Origin: Lentisphaerota bacterium | GTDB taxonomy: Bacteria > Verrucomicrobiota > Kiritimatiellia > UBA8416 > JAUUYL01 | Assembly (NCBI GenBank): GCA_030590485.1 | Contig: JAUUYL010000006.1 | Location: 3,785 to 67,784, forward strand | Length of the DNA stretch: 64,000 bases | Direction of reading: 5' to 3' | Shown: positions 29,986 through 38,526 of the stretch, piece after piece | How positions within the stretch are numbered: the stretch's first letter is position 1 | How the letters are laid out: each line of letters starts with the position of its first letter | Made by a program: the position numbers and the translations under genes | Notes under the pieces: model-generated | Seen by the model: only the letters and a program-made list of their open reading frames with translations | The model's database searches: none | What the model was told of the DNA's origin: nothing

Positions 29986-31284
29986 ATGATTGTAAAGGTT
30001 GAGAATAAGGGGTCTTGCAGAAAGGTTCTGCATATTGAAGCGCCGTCAGACGCTGTTGCTGATGAGTATAACAAGGTTTTAAAGGCATTTGAGAAGGGTG
30101 CAAAGATTCCTGGTTTCAGGAAGGGTAAGGCACCTAAGGACGTTACTAAGCTTCATTTTGCCACACAGATTGAAGAAGAGGTCAAAGAAAGATTGCTGCC
30201 TCAGTTGTATCGGGATGCAGTGAAGAAAAAGCAGATTAAGACTGTCAGTATAGTCGAAATCTCTGAAGTCGAATTCTCTCTAGATTCAGGTATAGCGTTT
30301 GGTGTCACTGTTGATGTATATCCTGAATTCAAGATTCCGAAGTACAAGAAAATCACACTTAAAAAGACTGCTGTAGAAATTGCTGATTCGGATGTGGAAG
30401 ATGCTGTCAAACGTTTGCTTGATAATTTCGCTAAGTTTGAGGACGTAACTGGCCGAGCGGTTAAGTCGGACGATCTGGTGATGGTGGATTACACTAGCGA
30501 ATGCGAAGGTAAATCTGTTGAGGAGCTGGTTCCTACGTCTAAGGGCATAGGAGAAGGAAAAGATTTTTGGATGATGGTTGGCGAGCCGGAATTGGCGCCA
30601 GGTTTTGCTGATGGTCTCAAAGGTACAGAGATTGGCGACAAGAAGGATATCAAAATTCATTTCCCTGATGATTATCAGCTTACTGACCTTTCCTGTAAGG
30701 ATGCAGTCTATCATGTGGAAATAAAAGGCATCAGAGAAAAGGCACTTCCGGATATAGATGAAGAGCTCTTAAAGAGGCTGCAGGTTAAATCCGAGGATGA
30801 GTTGCGAGAGAGAATCAGGGAAGATCTTGTTTCCGAGAAGGAGCGGATGGAAAACGAGCGGCTTAAGAGTGAAATCACTACTCATCTGCTTGCGAAGACA
30901 TCTTTCGACCTTCCTGAGACCATAGTTCAGCACGAGACGGCGTCAGCCACTAAAAGCATGGTAGACAGGCTTGCAATGCAGGGGCGGGCGACTGCGCAGA
31001 TTGAGCTGGAGAAAGAATCAATCGCCGATATGGCACGAAAGACATCTGAAGAGAAAGTTCGCATCTCATACATCCTTGCCCGTATTGCGGACGAGGAGCA
31101 GATTGATGTAGAAGAATCCGAGCTGAATGATCGTTTGGGGATGATGGCTATGCGTTATGGTATGACTGCAGGTCAGCTGAGGTCGGAACTCGAGAATAGG
31201 GACAGTCTGTCTGGTGTGCAGGAAGATCTCAGGGCTGAGAAGACCCTTACTTTTATTCTGGAAAATGCTAAGATTAAGAACTAG
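29986..31284 (+). CDS. tig: Trigger factor
   Basis: [10 protein letters not shown] ribosome-binding motif, FKBP domain; upstream of clpP-clpX. Confidence 0.93.
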
Positions 31285-31297
31285 AGGAGATAGAGTA

Positions 31298-31930
31298 ATG
31301 AATACTATGAATCAATTGGTACCAATGGTAGTGGAGCAGACGGGCCGTGGTGAACGGGCTTACGATATCTACTCACGTCTCCTGAAGGACCGTATTATTT
31401 TTATTGGTACGGGCATTGACGACCAGATCAGCAACCTTATTATAGCGCAACTGCTTTTTCTTCAGGCGGATGACTCGGAGAAAGACATCAGCATGTATGT
31501 TAACTCTCCAGGTGGATCGGTGACGGCGGGGTTGGCTATTTATGATACAATGCAGTTTCTCAAGTGTGATGTTGCGACCTATTGCGTGGGGCAGGCGGCC
31601 AGCATGGGCGCAGTCCTTCTTGCTGCAGGAACGGCTGGCAAGCGTTTTGCTCTGCCTAATGCGCGTATAATGATACATCAGCCGTGGGGCGGAACTCAGG
31701 GGCAGGCTGCTGATATAAGTATACAGGCACAGGAAATTTTGCGGTTGCGTGACTGTCTTAACGATATACTTGCCAAACACACTGGAAAATCTTCTTCCGT
31801 AATTACTAAGGATACAGACAGGGATTTCTTTATGACGGCTACAGAGGCCAAGGCATATGGTCTTGTTGACGCGGTTGTGAAGAGTAAAAAGAAGTCTGCC
31901 GGAAAAACATCGGCAAAGAAAGGTAAGTAA
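31298..31930 (+). CDS. clpP: ATP-dependent Clp protease proteolytic subunit
   Basis: [26 protein letters not shown] and MIHQP; ATG 31298 after GAGGAG. Confidence 0.96.
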
Positions 31931-33198
31931 TGTCGCAGGAGAAACCAGGATCATGCTCTTTCTGTGGGAAGGGCAACAAAGAGGTTAAGCGTTTGATCGC
32001 AGGGCCTGGGGTGAATATCTGTGATGAATGCGTTCATCTTTGTGACGGCTTGCTTGTTGAAGAGAGCGGTACCGTGAAGACAAAGAATGCCTCGGCGTTG
32101 CGGGTTCCTAAGCCGCGAGAGATCAAGGCGATGCTTGATGCGCATGTCATTGGACATGATTACACAAAGAAGGTCTTGTCGGTGGCTGTTCACAACCACT
32201 ATAAGCGGTTGAAACAGGAATCGCATTTTAATGAAGATGATCCTTATGCAAACATTGAGATAGAGAAAAGCAATATTATGCTGATAGGACCTACAGGAAG
32301 TGGCAAAACGCTTTTGGCAAGGACATTGGCGCGGTTGCTTGATGTGCCCTTTACCATTGTTGATGCGACAACACTGACGGAGGCCGGGTATGTGGGCGAG
32401 GATGTGGAAAATATTTTACTAAGCCTTATCCAGGCGTCTAACGGAGATATTGCAAGGGCTGAGATGGGAATTATTTACATTGATGAGATTGATAAGATCA
32501 GCCGGAAGACGGAGAATGTATCTATCACTCGTGATGTTTCGGGGGAGGGCGTACAGCAGGCGCTCTTGAAGATACTTGAAGGTACAGTTGCCAGGGTTCC
32601 ACCTGGAGGTGGCAGGAAGCATCCTCAGCAGGACTATATCAAGATTAACACTGAGCATATCCTGTTTATATGTGGCGGTGCCTTTGTGGGGCTGGAAGAT
32701 ATCACTAAGCGTCGGATCGGCGCGAATACATTGGGTTTTCTTGAGACCGAGGATGACTTGGTTAAGAAGGGGATTCGTGAGGGGCTCCACGTCGAACCGG
32801 AAGATCTTGTGCGTTATGGCTTAATACCTGAGTTAGTGGGTAGAATGCCGGTTGTCACATCTCTCGCTGAGCTTTCAGAGGAAGATCTTGTGCGCATTCT
32901 TGTCGAGCCGAAGAACTGTATGGTTAAGCAGTATCAAAAGCTTATGGCTATGGAAGATGTAAATCTTTCGTTTACACAGTCAGCTCTTACTGAACTGGCA
33001 AAAATTGCTACAAAGCGAGGAACGGGTGCACGTGGCTTAAGGGCTGTCGTCGAAAACGTCATGCTTGATGTGATGTTTGATGCTCCGAGTAATAGTAAGA
33101 CCAAGAGTCTTAGTGTAACAAGGCAGATGATTCGCGAAAAATATGGTATAGCAAAGTCTGATGATGCGTCTGATCAAGAGAAAAGAAAAATAGCTTAA
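31930..33198 (+). CDS. clpX: ATP-dependent Clp protease ATP-binding subunit
   Basis: CSFCG Zn-finger, [18 protein letters not shown] and [14 protein letters not shown]. Confidence 0.97.
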
Positions 33199-33200
33199 CT

Positions 33201-33566
33201 TTAGATTTCCTTGAGTCCGCAGGGCGCTTCGTTGTTCTCGTCGAGAATAAGAATCAGCGGTTTGTGTGTTTTTGCATCTGCCTCGTCTATGACGGCAAAA
33301 GTGAATATTATTAAAGTGTCACCAACTGATCCTTTGAATGCCGTGGCACCATTAAGGCTTATCTTTTTGGAACCGCTGTCCGCTGGAATTGCGTATGTTT
33401 CAAATCGCTCTCCATTAGAAACATTTGCGACCAGAATTTTCTCAAATGGATGAATCCTTGCGTGATCCATGAGATCTCTATCGATGGCCATGCTACCTTC
33501 GTAGTCCTTTTCGACTGCGGTGACGCGCGCGGCGTGAAGTTTTGATTTTAGCATTATAACGTTCAT
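33201..33566 (-). CDS. panD: Aspartate 1-decarboxylase
   Basis: KSKLH, YEGS cleavage site, NGERFETY and LNGA. Confidence 0.93.
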   Translation of the reverse strand: MNVIMLKSKLHAARVTAVEKDYEGSMAIDRDLMDHARIHPFEKILVANVSNGERFETYAIPADSGSKKISLNGATAFKGSVGDTLIIFTFAVIDEADAKTHKPLILILDENNEAPCGLKEI

Positions 33567-33614
33567 ATTCTTACCCTGATGTTTATTTGGATTGAGAGGT
33601 TAACTCAGCTTGTA

Positions 33615-34433
33615 TTATATAGCAAGCAAAGTCTTCTCAAGGACAGATGTTATTATCGGCATGGCTTTTGTTGTTTCGCTTAAGACCTCTTCGTGGGTAA
33701 GTTTTGCGTCACCAACGCCTGCAGCGAGGTTTGTAATGCACGAAAGGCCTGCTACAGTTAATCCGATGGAATTGGCTAATATTGCCTCCGGAACGGTTGA
33801 CATGCCTACTGCTGTACCTCCCATTGAATGGAGGTTTTGCACCTCTGCGGGTGTTTCGTATGTTGGCCCGTCCTTGGCAATGTAAATGCCGTGATGATAT
33901 GTTGCATTGGAATCTTTGCATGCGGAATCCAGTATATTCCTTAATTCGAGATCATAAACCTCGCTCTGGTCGGGGAAGTGTGGGCCCCAGTATGGCTCAT
34001 GTTTACCTGTTAGAGGATTATTGCTCATGGCGTTGATATGGTCGTCAATAATCATAAGGTCGCCTGGTTTGACGGATTTGGAGAGGCTGCCAGCGGCATT
34101 TGTCAGGAGCATCGATTTGATTGATAATTCTTTTGTTAGAAAAACAGGAAAGGCTATAGCGTCCCAGCCGCATCCTTCATACCAATGGTGTCTGCCTTGA
34201 AAAACTACGATTTTCTTGCCTTCGTGTTCGAGAAGGAGAAGCTTCCCTGTGTGACCTTTCACCTGGCTTTCTCCCATTATTGGGATATCGCTGTAGTCGA
34301 TAGACTGTAAGACCTTTAGCGGGCTAATGACTTCGCTCCAGCCTGAGCCCAGAACGATTGTGAGAACAGGTGATGCGTCAATAAAGTGTTTCTTAATCCC
34401 GGATAAGGAATTTTTTAATAATTCGAGGTTCAT
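33615..34433 (-). CDS. Purine nucleoside phosphorylase (trimeric PNP I family)
   Basis: VLGSG, GHTG, QGRHHWYEG, TNAAG, GPTYETPAE and VGMSTVPE. Confidence 0.93.
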   Translation of the reverse strand: MNLELLKNSLSGIKKHFIDASPVLTIVLGSGWSEVISPLKVLQSIDYSDIPIMGESQVKGHTGKLLLLEHEGKKIVVFQGRHHWYEGCGWDAIAFPVFLTKELSIKSMLLTNAAGSLSKSVKPGDLMIIDDHINAMSNNPLTGKHEPYWGPHFPDQSEVYDLELRNILDSACKDSNATYHHGIYIAKDGPTYETPAEVQNLHSMGGTAVGMSTVPEAILANSIGLTVAGLSCITNLAAGVGDAKLTHEEVLSETTKAMPIITSVLEKTLLAI

Positions 34434-34469
34434 TCAAGAAGTTATACATGAAAAACGGCATGTTACGAT

Positions 34470-34560
34470 AAAAAAAGACCGTTCAGTCAGGCAGGTTTCA
34501 TTAGACTTAGAACCTTACATCAGGTGGAGTCCTTTCCTACCTGCCCAACTGAGGGTCAGC
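34470..34560 (-). ncRNA. Candidate sigma54-dependent small RNA, about 90 nt rod ending in U7
   Basis: Minus-strand pairings gacc/ggtc, tcagtt/gactga, ggcaggt/acctgcc, ggact/agtct and acct/aggt; 5' end falls 11-12 nt after a -24/-12 motif. Confidence 0.6.
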
Positions 34561-34570
34561 ATATTATAAA

Positions 34571-34586
34571 GCATCTACTGTGCCAA
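34571..34586 (-). promoter_or_regulatory. Sigma54 (-24/-12) promoter
   Basis: TTGGCAC-AGTAG-ATGC with canonical GG-N10-GC spacing. Confidence 0.65.
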
Positions 34587-34660
34587 CCTCAGGGTGATTA
34601 CAGCAGTAGGTCTGAAAGCGCCTGATAATAAGGAAAAAATATTTATGGCAATTAGGCGAC

Positions 34661-34729
34661 TGTATCATATGCACATTTATTCAGGTATAGATGTATCATT
34701 ACGTGAAACAATGTGGTCGTATTCGGCCA
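34661..34729. promoter_or_regulatory. Putative upstream activator sequences for the adjacent enhancer-binding protein
   Basis: TGTATCATATGCACA (34661), TGTATCA-TTACG-TGAAACA (34692) and TGGTCG-TATT-CGGCCA (34714), 100-170 bp upstream of the predicted start. Confidence 0.45.
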
Positions 34730-34750
34730 AATGAGGGGTGTTAAGTACTG

Positions 34751-36148
34751 TTAGGCCTCTATTTTGAGGCTTTCGAGTGCACGTCTCAGTTTTCCGCGCG
34801 ATATACCGAGCATACGGGATGCTGCGGAGACATTGCTATTGGTTTGCTCAAGAACTGATGTAATCAATTCTCGTGTAACCTCATCCATATTGAGCGATTT
34901 AAATGACCATTCTGACGTTGATGGTTCAGGGAGACCTACAAGTGAGTCGGGGAAGTCTGACGCTGTCATTTGCCCAGTATGTTTACAATGGATAATGCTA
35001 CTTTCTATAACATTTCTTAATTCTCTGATATTACCAGGGAAACTGTATTCTGTAAGTTTGGATAAGGCTTCCGGATCAATACCGTCGATTGGTTTTCCCA
35101 TTTCGGAAGCAAATTGGAGCACAAAATGAGTTGCGAGCAGGGGGATATCATCTTTTCGATCTCTTAGCGGTGGCAGTACGATGCTACAGACCTTGAGTCG
35201 GTAGTAGAGATCCTCGCGAAACTGTTTTTTGCTTACGAGTTCGTCCAATCTCTGATTGGTAGCCGCTATTACTCGGACATCGGCGACCCGCTCCATGTTC
35301 TCTCCTATGGGAAGGTAAGTTTTCTGCTCTAGCAGTCTCAATATTTTAGCTTGTGATTTCAGGGGCAGGTCGCCTATTTCATCAAGGAAGAGTGTGCCAC
35401 CCTCTGCAGCTTGGACGTAACCACCTTTTGTTTCTATCGCACCAGTAAATGAGCCCTTTCTGTGTCCGAAAAGTTCCGACTCGAATAATTCTTCCGGTAC
35501 GGACGGACAGTTGACCGTCATGAAATGTTTGTCTTTTCGCGAGCTTGCGACATGTACGGCTCTTGCAGCGAGTTCTTTGCCTGTGCCGCTTTCACCGGTA
35601 ATCAGGACGGTAGCTGTGGTGTCCGCGACATTTATTATGGATTCAGCAACTTTTTTGATTCCGTCAGATTTTCCAATTATCAGGTTTCGCGGATTCTTCT
35701 GGGTAAGCAATTCTGAGCTTAGGATGTTCACTTTCTGGGTAAGAAGTTCTTTTTGCTGATAAAGAATCCTGAATCGGCTGGTGCGTTCTATTGCGGTGCT
35801 CAGCGCTTCTGTGGTGAAAGGTTTTTCGAAGAAATCGGTAGCACCTTCACGAAGGGCTCTGATTGCTGTGTCGACTTGTCCGTGCGCGGTTATGAAGATG
35901 ACGGCGCAGGATGGGTCAATTGCTTTGACTCGTTTGAGAACCTCGAAGCCATCGCATTTGGGCATGCAAATATCGCTTATAATGATATCTGCGCCGTTCT
36001 TGTCGATCCAGTCGATTGCTTTCAGGGGTTCCCTGAAAGATTCAATGGAAAATCCAAATTCCTTGAGTGCGCTTTTCAGGCTGTCTCGAACCATATCGTT
36101 GTCATCGATGAGGACAACTTTCATGTGCGTGTAATCAGATGTAGGCAT
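34751..36148 (-). CDS. Sigma54-dependent response regulator (NtrC family: REC-AAA+-HTH)
   Basis: IDDN, phospho-Asp in ISDICMP, GESGTGKE, GSFTGA, LFLDEIGD, FREDLYYRL and Fis HTH. Confidence 0.95.
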   Translation of the reverse strand: MPTSDYTHMKVVLIDDNDMVRDSLKSALKEFGFSIESFREPLKAIDWIDKNGADIIISDICMPKCDGFEVLKRVKAIDPSCAVIFITAHGQVDTAIRALREGATDFFEKPFTTEALSTAIERTSRFRILYQQKELLTQKVNILSSELLTQKNPRNLIIGKSDGIKKVAESIINVADTTATVLITGESGTGKELAARAVHVASSRKDKHFMTVNCPSVPEELFESELFGHRKGSFTGAIETKGGYVQAAEGGTLFLDEIGDLPLKSQAKILRLLEQKTYLPIGENMERVADVRVIAATNQRLDELVSKKQFREDLYYRLKVCSIVLPPLRDRKDDIPLLATHFVLQFASEMGKPIDGIDPEALSKLTEYSFPGNIRELRNVIESSIIHCKHTGQMTASDFPDSLVGLPEPSTSEWSFKSLNMDEVTRELITSVLEQTNSNVSAASRMLGISRGKLRRALESLKIEA

Positions 36149-36254
36149 TAGAGATTAATAGAAGCTTTTTTTTGTGCGCTAGTCCAGAAAAATATATACG
36201 GCATGTGAAATATGTATACCAATTGGGTGTATATAATGATATTTTTAGTATGTT

Positions 36255-37616
36255 GTGAAAAAAGAAAAAATACACGATAGAGATGATTGCATGTCTCGCA
36301 GGGAGTTTGCGGCGCTTACAGCCGCGTCCATGACTGCGCTGGCGTCTGGTTGTGCAACAAACCCTGTCAGCGGCAAAAGGCAGTTTATGTTGATAACGCA
36401 GTCGATGGAGGTGAGTTACGATCGGAAGTGGGCGCCTCAGCAGTTTTCCGCTGATTACGGTGCCGTGCAGGATTATAAGCTTAACGAATACCTAAGCTCA
36501 ATTGGTCGTAACATGGCTGTGGTGACGGATAGGCCTTCTATGCCGTACAACTTCAGGGCTCTAAATGCAGTTGTGGTCAATGCGTATACGATGCCAGCTG
36601 GAAGCATAGGCCTTGCGCGGGGGCTGTTGCTCGAAATGGACAATGAAGCTCAGATGTCCTCGATTATAGGGCATGAACTGGCTCATGTGAATTGGAAGCA
36701 TGCCGCCGAGAGGATTTCCAAGAGTCTGTTGTTAAATGCGGTGATTGCGGGTGGTGGTGCATATCTTGAATACAAGGACAGCAAATATACTGATCTTGCT
36801 GCCGGACTTGGTATGATTGGGTCTAACATACTCTTGAGCAAGTATAGTCGTGATAATGAGCGCGAGGCGGATCTTACGGGTATGGAATACGCCGCTCGTG
36901 CGGGACATAATCCATTAGGCATGCCTGGTGTGATGGAGAAGTTCATGTCTTTGCATAAAAGCAAGCCCAGTGCTGTTGAATTGCTTTTCTCGACGCATCC
37001 CATGAGCACCGAGAGGTATCAGAATACGACTATAGCCTGCCAGAAGCAGCACAAGGATATTAGCGGCAGGTCTATGCACAGGGAACGGTATATGGATAAC
37101 ATTGCAAGCGTACGTTCAATAAAGAAAGCGATTGTAGAAATGCAGAATGGTGATAAATCAATGTATGCGAAGAAGTATATGCAGGCGCAACAGCATTATT
37201 CTGCGGCATTGGCTGTGGCGCCCGAGGATTATGCAGGGTTATTAATGATGAGTAAATGCCTTATGGCTCAGGGGCATAACAAGACTGCCCGCAAGTATGT
37301 TGCCCAGGCAAAAGATGTGTATCCGCAGGAGGCGCAGGCGCTGCATGTCGCGGGCATGGTTGGTATAAAGATGCGAAGTTTTGATTCTGCGCTTGCCGAC
37401 TTTGTGGAGTATGAAAAACGTCTTCCTGGTAATCCTAACACGATCTTTTTCAGAGGACTCTGTAATGAGAAGATGGGGCGCAAGGAGTTGGCAGCAAGGG
37501 ATTACAAGCGATATCATTATGCAGCGCCACGAGGAGACTACTCTGGATATGTGCAGAACAATCTGATAAAGTGGGGCTATATGGCGCAACCGCAGCAGAA
37601 TCAAGGGAGTAAATAA
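36255..37616 (+). CDS. M48 metalloprotease (BepA/YfgC-like) Tat-lipoprotein with C-terminal TPRs
   Basis: SRREF Tat motif, LASGC lipobox, HELAH, YSRDNEREAD and STHP; true start may be ATG 36291. Confidence 0.88.
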   Translation: MKKEKIHDRDDCMSRREFAALTAASMTALASGCATNPVSGKRQFMLITQSMEVSYDRKWAPQQFSADYGAVQDYKLNEYLSSIGRNMAVVTDRPSMPYNFRALNAVVVNAYTMPAGSIGLARGLLLEMDNEAQMSSIIGHELAHVNWKHAAERISKSLLLNAVIAGGGAYLEYKDSKYTDLAAGLGMIGSNILLSKYSRDNEREADLTGMEYAARAGHNPLGMPGVMEKFMSLHKSKPSAVELLFSTHPMSTERYQNTTIACQKQHKDISGRSMHRERYMDNIASVRSIKKAIVEMQNGDKSMYAKKYMQAQQHYSAALAVAPEDYAGLLMMSKCLMAQGHNKTARKYVAQAKDVYPQEAQALHVAGMVGIKMRSFDSALADFVEYEKRLPGNPNTIFFRGLCNEKMGRKELAARDYKRYHYAAPRGDYSGYVQNNLIKWGYMAQPQQNQGSK

Positions 37617-37617
37617 T

Positions 37618-38526
37618 ATGGCTTTTCTCGGTAATTTTAATATAGCAGAAGATATGCAGGTTAAAATCCTTTCTTCGCTACTTGTCGTTGTTCTGTTATG
37701 GATAATTCGCAAGATCATTTGCTCGGTCATGAAGCGGAAAGTTACTGACTTGGCTAAGTTTTATCATTGGCGAAGAGTCGTTGATTATACTTTCTGGGTG
37801 CTAATCATATTGCTGGTTCTTGGTGAGTGGCTACATGGAATTGACTCTATCGCTCAGTTTCTCGGGTTGGCAACTGCTGGTCTGGCAATTGCAATGCATG
37901 ATACTGTGGCTAATCTGGCAGGTTGGGTGTTCATATTGTGGCGTAAGCCGTTCGTTGTGGGCGACAGAATACAGGTTGGCGATACAAGGGGAGATGTAAT
38001 CGATATCAGGCTGTTTCAATTTAGCATGATAGAGATAGGTAATTGGGTTGATGCTGAGCAGAGTACGGGCCGGATTGTTCACGTTCCGAATAGTAAGGCG
38101 TTCAGGGAGAATGTTGCAAATTACGAGACTGGTTTTGAATATATATGGCACGAAATACCGGTTTTGATTACTTTTGAGAGCGATTGGCAGAAAGCGAAGA
38201 ATATACTGCTAAATATTTCCAAAGAGAAGGCTGAGCATCTTTCAAAAGGGGCGGCCGAGCAGATACGACGCGCGGCAAGGAAGTATCTGATTCACTTCGA
38301 TAAATTGACGCCTACTGTATATACGACCGTCAAGGACCATGGTGTGTTGTTGACAATGAGGTATATTGTTAAGCCTCGCAGGAGACGCAACACAGAGCAG
38401 GATATCTGGGAAGAGATACTTACTGTTTTCTCCCATGAGAAGGACATCAGCCTGGCATATCCTACAACAAGGTTTTACAATCCCGGGGTTGATCCAGGGG
38501 TGAGCGTAGCCACTAAAAATGAATAA
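37618..38526 (+). CDS. mscS: Small-conductance mechanosensitive channel MscS family
   Basis: 3 TM; KPFVVGDRIQVG..RGDVIDI, VHVPNS and LAYPT. Confidence 0.9.
   Translation: MAFLGNFNIAEDMQVKILSSLLVVVLLWIIRKIICSVMKRKVTDLAKFYHWRRVVDYTFWVLIILLVLGEWLHGIDSIAQFLGLATAGLAIAMHDTVANLAGWVFILWRKPFVVGDRIQVGDTRGDVIDIRLFQFSMIEIGNWVDAEQSTGRIVHVPNSKAFRENVANYETGFEYIWHEIPVLITFESDWQKAKNILLNISKEKAEHLSKGAAEQIRRAARKYLIHFDKLTPTVYTTVKDHGVLLTMRYIVKPRRRRNTEQDIWEEILTVFSHEKDISLAYPTTRFYNPGVDPGVSVATKNE

Follow-up and report, generated by a model that had tools for sequence, protein, structure and literature searches.

A putative sigma-54-dependent hairpin RNA beside an NtrC-type response regulator gene, from a previously undescribed family in bacteria of the Planctomycetes-Verrucomicrobia-Chlamydiae (PVC) group

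In Pseudomonas, the CbrB-CrcZ system sets the gene of an NtrC-type activator beside that of a sigma-54-dependent small RNA (sRNA), CrcZ, which is a protein sponge of about 400 nucleotides (nt) with repeated A-rich Hfq/Crc motifs. In Vibrio, qrr1 adjoins luxO, and the Qrr RNAs depend on Hfq and base-pair through a conserved seed that is left free; in Enterobacteriaceae, GlmY and GlmZ are under sigma-54/GlrR control, with glmY lying next to glrK-glrR. GlmY and GlmZ are two homologous sRNAs, one being a protein decoy for RapZ and the other a base-pairer (PMC4152352, PMC7073468). In nla19-pxr of Myxococcus and its relatives, the gene of a sigma-54-dependent response regulator is followed immediately, in the intergenic region, by an sRNA gene; Pxr has its own sigma-54 promoter, a length of ~100 nt, three predicted stem-loops and paralogs that each have a sigma-54 promoter of their own (PMC5568312). 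Here, we describe a comparable locus in a 64,000-nt stretch of DNA (the window, to whose positions all plain coordinates refer) from a Lentisphaerota bacterium (GenBank assembly GCA_030590485.1, contig JAUUYL010000006.1). In this genome, denoted G000 (its contigs bear C-numbers), the 317-nt intergenic gap between the gene of an NtrC-family enhancer-binding response regulator (EBP) of REC-AAA+-HTH type (34751-36148, minus strand) and the next gene (33615-34433, minus strand) holds the putative gene of a hairpin RNA.

Taken as a whole, the locus is best explained, and in our judgment probably so, as the gene of a structured, sigma-54-dependent RNA of ~90 nt that is activated by the regulator and acts in trans. 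An earlier note on this DNA had read the gap (34470-34750) as a palindrome region, an AT-rich spacer, a -24/-12 motif, a hairpin and a run of seven U (U7), and all of these are present, the -24/-12 motif ending 11-12 nt before the ~90-nt hairpin. The RNA and its promoter are composed as follows.

34470-34560, minus strand: small RNA of ~90 nt, which would begin near 34560/34559 and finish with U7 (fold and covariance models; start from promoter geometry).
34571-34586, minus strand: predicted sigma-54 promoter TTGGCAC-N5-ATGC, with GG at -24 and GC at -12 (motif and conservation).
34539-34557, minus strand: 5' strand of the basal stem P1, GACC.UCAGUUGGGCAGGU, which pairs with 34496-34477 and holds an invariant G.U wobble (39/39 copies).
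34533-34538, minus strand: 5' strand of the internal loop, AGGAAA, with family consensus A-N-G-A-R-A (RNAfold and alignment).
34503-34532, minus strand: stem P2 and variable apical domain, P2 being GGAC/GUCC and covarying with GGGC/GCCC.
34497-34502, minus strand: 3' strand of the internal loop, AAUGAA, with family consensus A-A-W-G-A-A (RNAfold and alignment).
34477-34496, minus strand: 3' strand of P1, ACCUGCCUGACUGAACGGUC (RNAfold and covariation).
34470-34476, minus strand: U7 tail, read from the sequence; hairpin and U7 together form an intrinsic terminator.

RNAfold predicts an end-to-end hairpin (34557-34477) of -38.2 kcal/mol, against -23.0 +/- 3.35 kcal/mol for shuffled sequences (z -4.53), and none of 200 shuffles of the hairpin sequence folds as well. 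The stretch GUAGGAAAGGAC lies at 34540-34529 on the minus strand. Features of an intrinsic terminator, namely a GC-rich hairpin followed by a U run, are present in the window copy, and were missed by a simple terminator scanner because the loop is too long; this terminator belongs to the RNA but cannot account for it.

Homologues of the RNA were found well beyond this genome. By blastn against 60 genomes of the same order, the 321-nt gap matched five genomes, exclusively over query positions 175-293, a span bounded by the -24 element and the terminator. Six sequences served to build a covariance model (R1) that covers the RNA with the promoter left out; it detected the RNA in 20 of 64 genomes of the order, distributed over many families and mostly in two to three copies per genome. 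When 151 genomes from other orders of the class were searched with a second model, built from 30 copies (R2), six of them proved to contain the RNA, and the same model gave no matches in 150 further genomes of the phylum. By covariance models, the family amounts to 42 copies, spread over ~30 genomes within one order and six from sister orders of its class, with the window copy scoring 92.9 bits under R1 and 80.8 bits under R2. Furthermore, an exact-pattern scan of 185,579 species genomes returned 20 stretches, 15 of which were confirmed by the model and stood under record titles naming Kiritimatiellia/Kiritimatiellae, Victivallales/Lentisphaerae, the PVC group or metagenome-assembled genomes of Verrucomicrobiota; the other five (e.g., in Vreelandella and Rhodopirellula) are in line with the ~4 expected by chance. 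A metagenome scan added 17 stretches, eight of them model-confirmed, some of these being identical to each other or to known copies.

Rfam includes the Qrr, GlmY/GlmZ and CrcZ families and, as we presume, Pxr, and an Rfam search revealed no homology of the RNA to any of these. Across the window, Rfam 15 with E up to 10 offered only Ysr206 (12.7 bits vs. 124, E = 7), and no family was placed on the RNA at ten loci searched with gathering thresholds or at 12 loci searched with E up to 5, in line with an undescribed RNA. Our literature search, which reached its sources in part, likewise returned no publication on small RNAs or RNA regulators of Kiritimatiellia and their PVC relatives. These comparisons give good support to the view that the predicted RNA is a previously undescribed family, whose carriers belong to a single order of PVC bacteria (apparently Kiritimatiellia) and to some of its sister orders.

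The copies also bear marks of a conserved structure. In a model-fitted alignment of 30 copies, 90% of the cells are paired and compensatory changes occur at 12 of 22 pairs (84 cells); the covariation score of 0.358 was reached by none of 500 shuffles, and remained at or below 0.094 when the partners were slid by one to three columns. Since an alignment of this kind leans towards the model, 39 copies were realigned independently with MAFFT and folded with RNAalifold, which returned the same fold, with compensatory changes at 13 of 18 pairs and one G.U wobble kept in every copy. The end-paired RNA of ~90 nt with an AGGAAA/AAUGAA bubble, as the earlier note had drawn it, is borne out by this covariation and by the folding energy of the window copy. 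Moreover, forward matches score ~111 bits and their reverse strands ~31 bits, and this asymmetry, together with the G.U pairs, fixes the RNA strand as the promoter strand. Comparison of the copies shows the predicted RNA fold to be under selection.

The consensus comprises a basal stem starting CC...GG with a bulged A, the conserved stem positions G17, G20.U146 and G21, a GGU that closes the loop, P2 in the form GGRC/GYCC, and a 6x6 purine-rich internal loop with both strands nearly invariant. RNA lengths range from 85 to 121 nt, following a tip that varies in length and sequence from one hairpin (RNAs of 85-105 nt) to two (112-121 nt), and the middle of P1 differs between paralogs, yet stays paired through covariation. 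A U-rich tail (at least five T in eight) stands behind 30 of the 42 copies.

In the predicted promoter, the GG and GC doublets are spaced canonically, as in TGGCAC-N5-TTGCW (TGGCACAGTAGATGCT at 34585-34570), and the promoter recurs with the RNA, although it is not part of the covariance model. Of the 42 copies, 37 (of 41 testable ones) have TGG[CT]A[CT]-N6-TGC at a distance of 5-7 nt upstream of the model start, one of the five misses being a copy at a contig end, and the promoter is present in all eight model-confirmed metagenome copies. The genome also encodes the corresponding sigma factor, with rpoN on contig C108 (PF04552, 209.6 bits).

It could be argued that the hairpin is simply the terminator of the regulator gene, and that the -24/-12 match arose by chance or the real promoter is a sigma-70 one with the TATAAT at 34568-34563, which overlaps this region. 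Hairpin and U7 would indeed also stop transcription arriving from upstream, and within the window the promoter motif by itself is no more frequent than chance allows. However, there are paralogs, alike in fold and promoter, at a great distance from any EBP gene (e.g., on G000 contig C12), the GG and GC doublets keep a fixed offset in the 37 copies counted above, the TATAAT is not conserved in homologues, and a sigma-70 scan gave two sites vs. 1.3 in shuffles, none of them using that TATAAT. The sigma-70 promoter, which the earlier note had left open, was therefore rejected for want of conservation and of any excess over shuffles, and this rival explanation as a whole is scarcely credible; on the comparative evidence, the hairpin is neither a chance hairpin nor a mere regulator terminator. 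The core of that note, an undescribed sigma-54-dependent sRNA behind an NtrC-family activator in a PVC lineage, thus has strong comparative support, from the conservation of promoter and structure in relatives, from rpoN, from the lack of an Rfam match and from the adjacency of the EBP gene in 11 genomes. The remaining features of the locus are the following.

34751-36148, minus strand: NtrC-family EBP of 465 amino acids (aa), with REC, AAA+ sigma-54 interaction and HTH_8 domains (Pfam).
34714-34729: candidate enhancer (upstream activating sequence, UAS) TGGCCGAATACGACCA, one mismatch from TGGCCG-N4-CGGCCA, centered ~162 nt before the predicted start.
34661-34710: TGATACA repeats and imperfect palindrome TGTTTCA-N5-TGATACA, present here without a counterpart upstream of homologous loci.
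33615-34433, minus strand: purine-nucleoside phosphorylase, the downstream neighbor (NCBIfam NF006054, 294.3 bits vs. a cut-off of 218).

The EBP scored 222.6 bits against Sigma54_activat, 102.5 against Response_reg and 28.5 against HTH_8 in Pfam, and the motifs of its translation are intact, including the acceptor Asp D59 in IISDICMP, the Walker A motif GESGTGKE and the GSFTGA loop. All cut-offs of the NCBIfam equivalogs were missed (best AtoC, 383 vs. 714), and the predicted protein is a member of no named subfamily. No histidine kinase gene is adjacent to it. Orthologs (at least 51% identity, paralogs reaching at most 44%) were identified in 21 of 64 genomes of the order. Directly upstream of the RNA and on the same strand, an ortholog occurs in 11 genomes (G000, G004, G019, G021, G046, G036, G002, G043, G026, G028 and G067, the last from another order), which is the arrangement of an sRNA gene beside the gene of an NtrC-type activator.

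Upstream of the promoter, the palindrome TGGCCG-N4-CGGCCA (at most two mismatches) was found 120-210 nt before 13 of the 42 copies, among them eight of the ten tallied copies with an adjacent EBP gene. It often forms a tandem pair, ~20-22 nt apart, and is kept at RNA copies unlinked from the EBP gene (L009, L035). Its background in G000 is 112 sites in 2.63 Mb (~0.011 per 260 nt), and only two of the sites in that genome precede a sigma-54 promoter, both at +128 nt. The palindrome at 34729-34714 appears to be a conserved enhancer-like element of one class of copies, type A, and we infer that the EBP binds it. The earlier note had assigned this role to TGTATCA/TGATACA palindromes. TGATACA occurs twice (34699-34692 and 34668-34661), the first forming the imperfect palindrome with TGTTTCA (34710-34692), which was read by eye and is not reported by an exact-seed inverted-repeat scan; as the homologous loci do not share them, these repeats were rejected as an enhancer.

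The other palindrome with a sigma-54-like promoter at +128 nt lies on contig C70 (C70:7221-7380; L089:4913-10747) and may mark a second target of the same regulator. It precedes an open reading frame (ORF) of 1944 aa that has no Pfam match and an N-terminus that looks, by eye, like a secretion signal. The activators of G000, a genome of 2.6 Mb with 13 PF00158 matches above 100 bits, include one of FHA-AAA+ type, also on contig C70.

A second class, type B, was recognized in ten copies, which carry TGT[CA]A-N4-TTGTAAT-like repeats ~45 nt before the -24 element and additional conserved blocks farther upstream. The motif resembles the IHF consensus, and may be bound by IHF or by a different activator. 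In G000, the type B RNA is the sole place where it is combined with a sigma-54 promoter at the type B spacing (+43); at one further site the promoter is at +15. This second G000 copy (C12:11250-11363, minus strand, equal to L030:1501-1614; 58.2 bits) has the promoter TGGTAT-N5-ATGC and the upstream motif TGTCAA-N4-TTGTAAT, is without a U tail, and is flanked by genes for a SpoU-type RNA methylase and a His_Phos_1 protein. A weak third match (C134:42041-42152, minus strand, equal to L066; 35 bits) has a poor promoter and a degenerate loop, and may have arisen by decay of a copy or by chance. Both classes are represented, by one copy each, in six genomes (G000, G019, G021, G046, G016 and G067), and since one of the six is from another order, the duplication is old. 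The neighbors of type B copies vary: three genomes have the gene of an Ank-MORN protein there, and the others have genes unrelated to it. The downstream gene is convergent at seven of 15 assessable non-A copies, which favors a free-standing, trans-acting RNA.

This variety of neighbors bears on another rival, a cis-acting leader or attenuator, in which the sigma-54 transcript would read through the hairpin into the phosphorylase gene and the balance of termination and read-through would be regulated. The phosphorylase start codon lies 36 nt past U7 (34434-34470), the same gene follows the RNA in G019, G002 and G067 (in G021 it is one gene away), and some type A copies have weak U tails. Nevertheless, other copies precede unrelated genes (Ank-MORN, His_Phos_1, DUF362) or the convergent genes counted above, so that the steady, related, same-strand downstream genes of a leader or riboswitch were not found among the 15 assessable non-A loci; the whole clpX-to-mscS block is syntenic, and the neighbor may therefore reflect conserved gene order; and single predicted structures contain no alternative anti-terminator fold. 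We consider a leader improbable as an explanation of the family. The phosphorylase gene is probably outside the RNA element, and the RNA locus may have a read-through role into it at type A copies only.

The syntenic block runs from clpP-clpX through the purine-nucleoside phosphorylase, the RNA and the regulator to a divergent BepA-like M48 protease and MscS. As side observations, gene order in the window from 29986 to 38526 is kept across orders, with a 432-aa ORF, a 238-aa ORF and clpX (Pfam) on one strand, panD, the phosphorylase, the RNA and the regulator on the other, and divergent genes for a BepA-like M48/TPR protease and an MscS channel beyond the regulator. A TATAAC box stands 7 nt before the phosphorylase ATG, and from this box and the 36-nt spacing the phosphorylase gene may be leaderless or dependent on read-through.

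In the mechanism that we propose, sigma-54 RNA polymerase would start near 34560 after activation by the phosphorylated NtrC-type regulator encoded upstream, which would bind the TGGCCG-N4-CGGCCA palindrome at 34729-34714, and transcription would stop at the RNA's own hairpin and U7. The product would be a closed hairpin, composed of P1 with its invariant G.U pair, the 6x6 internal loop, a short P2 and a variable tip. With two paralogs per genome as the usual state and different upstream elements in types A and B, two signals might feed one RNA scaffold.

For the action in trans, our tentative preference, which we hold as plausible without great confidence, is that the internal loop, together with the conserved stem positions next to it, lets the RNA bind a protein and so titrate or scaffold it. 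Conserved bases along the helix and on both loop strands, a stem middle that covaries between paralogs, a free tip and closed ends favor protein binding over base-pairing, and so does the lack of Hfq, ProQ and CsrA matches in G000. A base-pairing riboregulator like Qrr, in which one of the loop strands (CCAAUGAAACC, UAAGAGAGG) or else GACCCUC at the C-rich 5' end would pair with mRNAs and alter their translation or decay, is possible but rather doubtful. Base-pairing is the commonest mode of sigma-54-dependent sRNAs (Qrr), and both loop strands are nearly invariant here. Moreover, three genomes of family f18 (G052, G054 and G056; L080:432-585, L082:370-522 and L083:389-530) have the regulator ortholog, tandem palindromes and a sigma-54 promoter followed by a different RNA, which is closed, ~120 nt long, of the form GCCGGGGGUUG...CAGCCCCCGGC with a U tail, and includes a long unpaired C-rich stretch typical of a seed; a model of it (R3) matches only its three source genomes among 64. 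On the other hand, the conserved bases of the present family lie in a 6-nt internal loop clamped by stable helices, where neither a hairpin loop nor a free end exposes them; some stem positions and a G.U pair are conserved as well, for which a seed would have no use; Hfq (PF17209) and ProQ gave no match in G000; and exact 10-nt complements of the loop strands in that genome are near chance, with no standout site, in a crude scan that took no account of gene calls, G.U pairs or conservation.

Among candidate protein partners, CsrA (PF02599) was not found in a profile search of G000, which is 90.8% complete (the genomes of comparison being 63-97% complete), and Ro60/TROVE (PF05731) gave no match there either, on which ground a Y RNA or Ro RNP identity was rejected. 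The GGA motifs had suggested a CsrA sponge in the earlier note, and the window copy does hold two AGGA motifs. Yet CsrA occurs in nine of 64 genomes of the order and in five of its 20 RNA carriers, so that its distribution across the order is not that of the RNA; GGA is not conserved in the loop, where the consensus reads A-N-G-A-R-A, and there is one internal loop only. Known CsrA sponges have many GGA hairpins. A CsrA/RsmA sponge acting through the AGGA motifs is, in consequence, extremely improbable.

A likeness to ribosomal RNA was also noted. The region of the 5' loop strand (34528-34541), with consensus GGUA-N-GARA-GGRCC, resembles the sarcin-ricin loop of the G000 23S rRNA, AGTACGAGAGGACC (C33 near 35518), the loop 5' strand copying 12 of its 13 bases, and the metagenome copy L103 has the sarcin-ricin-like GGUACGAGAGGACC at the same place. 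A sarcin-ricin loop has the form GUA-C-GAGA-GGACC folded on itself, with a closing C-G pair and a flanking helix. When mimicry was tested, the closing position was C in only three of 30 copies, the flanks were not self-complementary, and GGAC covaried with the opposite strand. The covariation favors cross-strand pairing, the likeness may be a coincidence, and it is very improbable that the partner is a factor that normally reads the 23S sarcin-ricin loop. Returning to protein binding in general, it is conceivable, though we would not expect it, that the family is a new class of stable closed-hairpin RNAs that capture a protein, mostly in carriers without Hfq, ProQ or CsrA, with two enhancer inputs acting on one scaffold in a manner similar, though unrelated, to GlmY/GlmZ.

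Several points weigh against the proposed sigma-54-dependent, regulator-activated RNA acting in trans. A search for public RNA runs containing the locus returned none; three metatranscriptome contig sets from one study placed none of their contigs on 34380-34720 and are uninformative on expression. In the 64-kb window, the promoter motif alone is at chance (one match vs. 0.65 expected, with at least one match in 49 of 100 window shuffles), so its significance comes from conservation in the homologues. Twelve of the 42 copies are without a clear U tail, and their ends may be made differently. Eight of the 21 genomes with an EBP ortholog show no RNA copy by R1, and the RNA was not adjacent in ten of 11 checked regions downstream of the EBP gene. 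As G000 encodes ~13 sigma-54 activators, it is adjacency and the palindrome that single out this regulator as the partner of the RNA. The phosphorylase gene is found closely behind the RNA at type A loci in four genomes. Finally, protein binding is argued from the pattern of conservation.

Almost nothing is known about RNA regulation in Kiritimatiellia and their PVC relatives. With its covariation, dedicated promoter and likely dedicated response regulator, the family offers a concrete entry to sigma-54 signaling in polysaccharide-degrading anaerobes, and lets riboregulation without Hfq, ProQ or CsrA be tested. It is a candidate for a new Rfam entry, and in the palindrome an orphan NtrC-type regulator gains a candidate binding site that can be put to the test.

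Regarding its relation to known systems, 6S RNA is a protein-binding, closed and end-paired hairpin with an internal bubble, although it is ~180 nt long and its bubble is much larger. Identity with 6S RNA was rejected, the present RNA being 85-121 nt long with a 6x6 loop and no Rfam 6S match; the stem shows, by eye, no likeness to a -24/-12 promoter. An RNA mimic of that promoter was also rejected, as no matching register was found by eye. From CrcZ, the family differs in its length and its single internal loop, and Hfq was not found in G000. LuxO-Qrr1-5 of Vibrio is similar in that an NtrC-type response regulator and sigma-54 drive several homologous sRNAs, whereas here the conserved bases are in the internal loop and stems, Hfq was not found in G000 and no Rfam match was obtained.

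In layout, own sigma-54 promoter, length and paralogs with promoters of their own, the locus is close to nla19-pxr. Pxr is predicted to form three stem-loops and belongs to another phylum, whereas the RNA here is one closed hairpin with a 6x6 loop; in addition, its second paralog class has a different upstream element. GlmY/GlmZ is, by analogy, the best model for two paralogs with one scaffold and protein titration, although there is no Rfam match in sequence or structure, and the different upstream elements of the paralog classes here probably mean different activators. Should the RNA turn out to be a protein decoy that answers to two sensory inputs, the logic of GlmY/GlmZ or CrcZ would have been invented here independently. 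In brief, this is a new RNA family inside a known kind of module, standing apart from the Pxr, Qrr, GlmY/GlmZ and CrcZ families.

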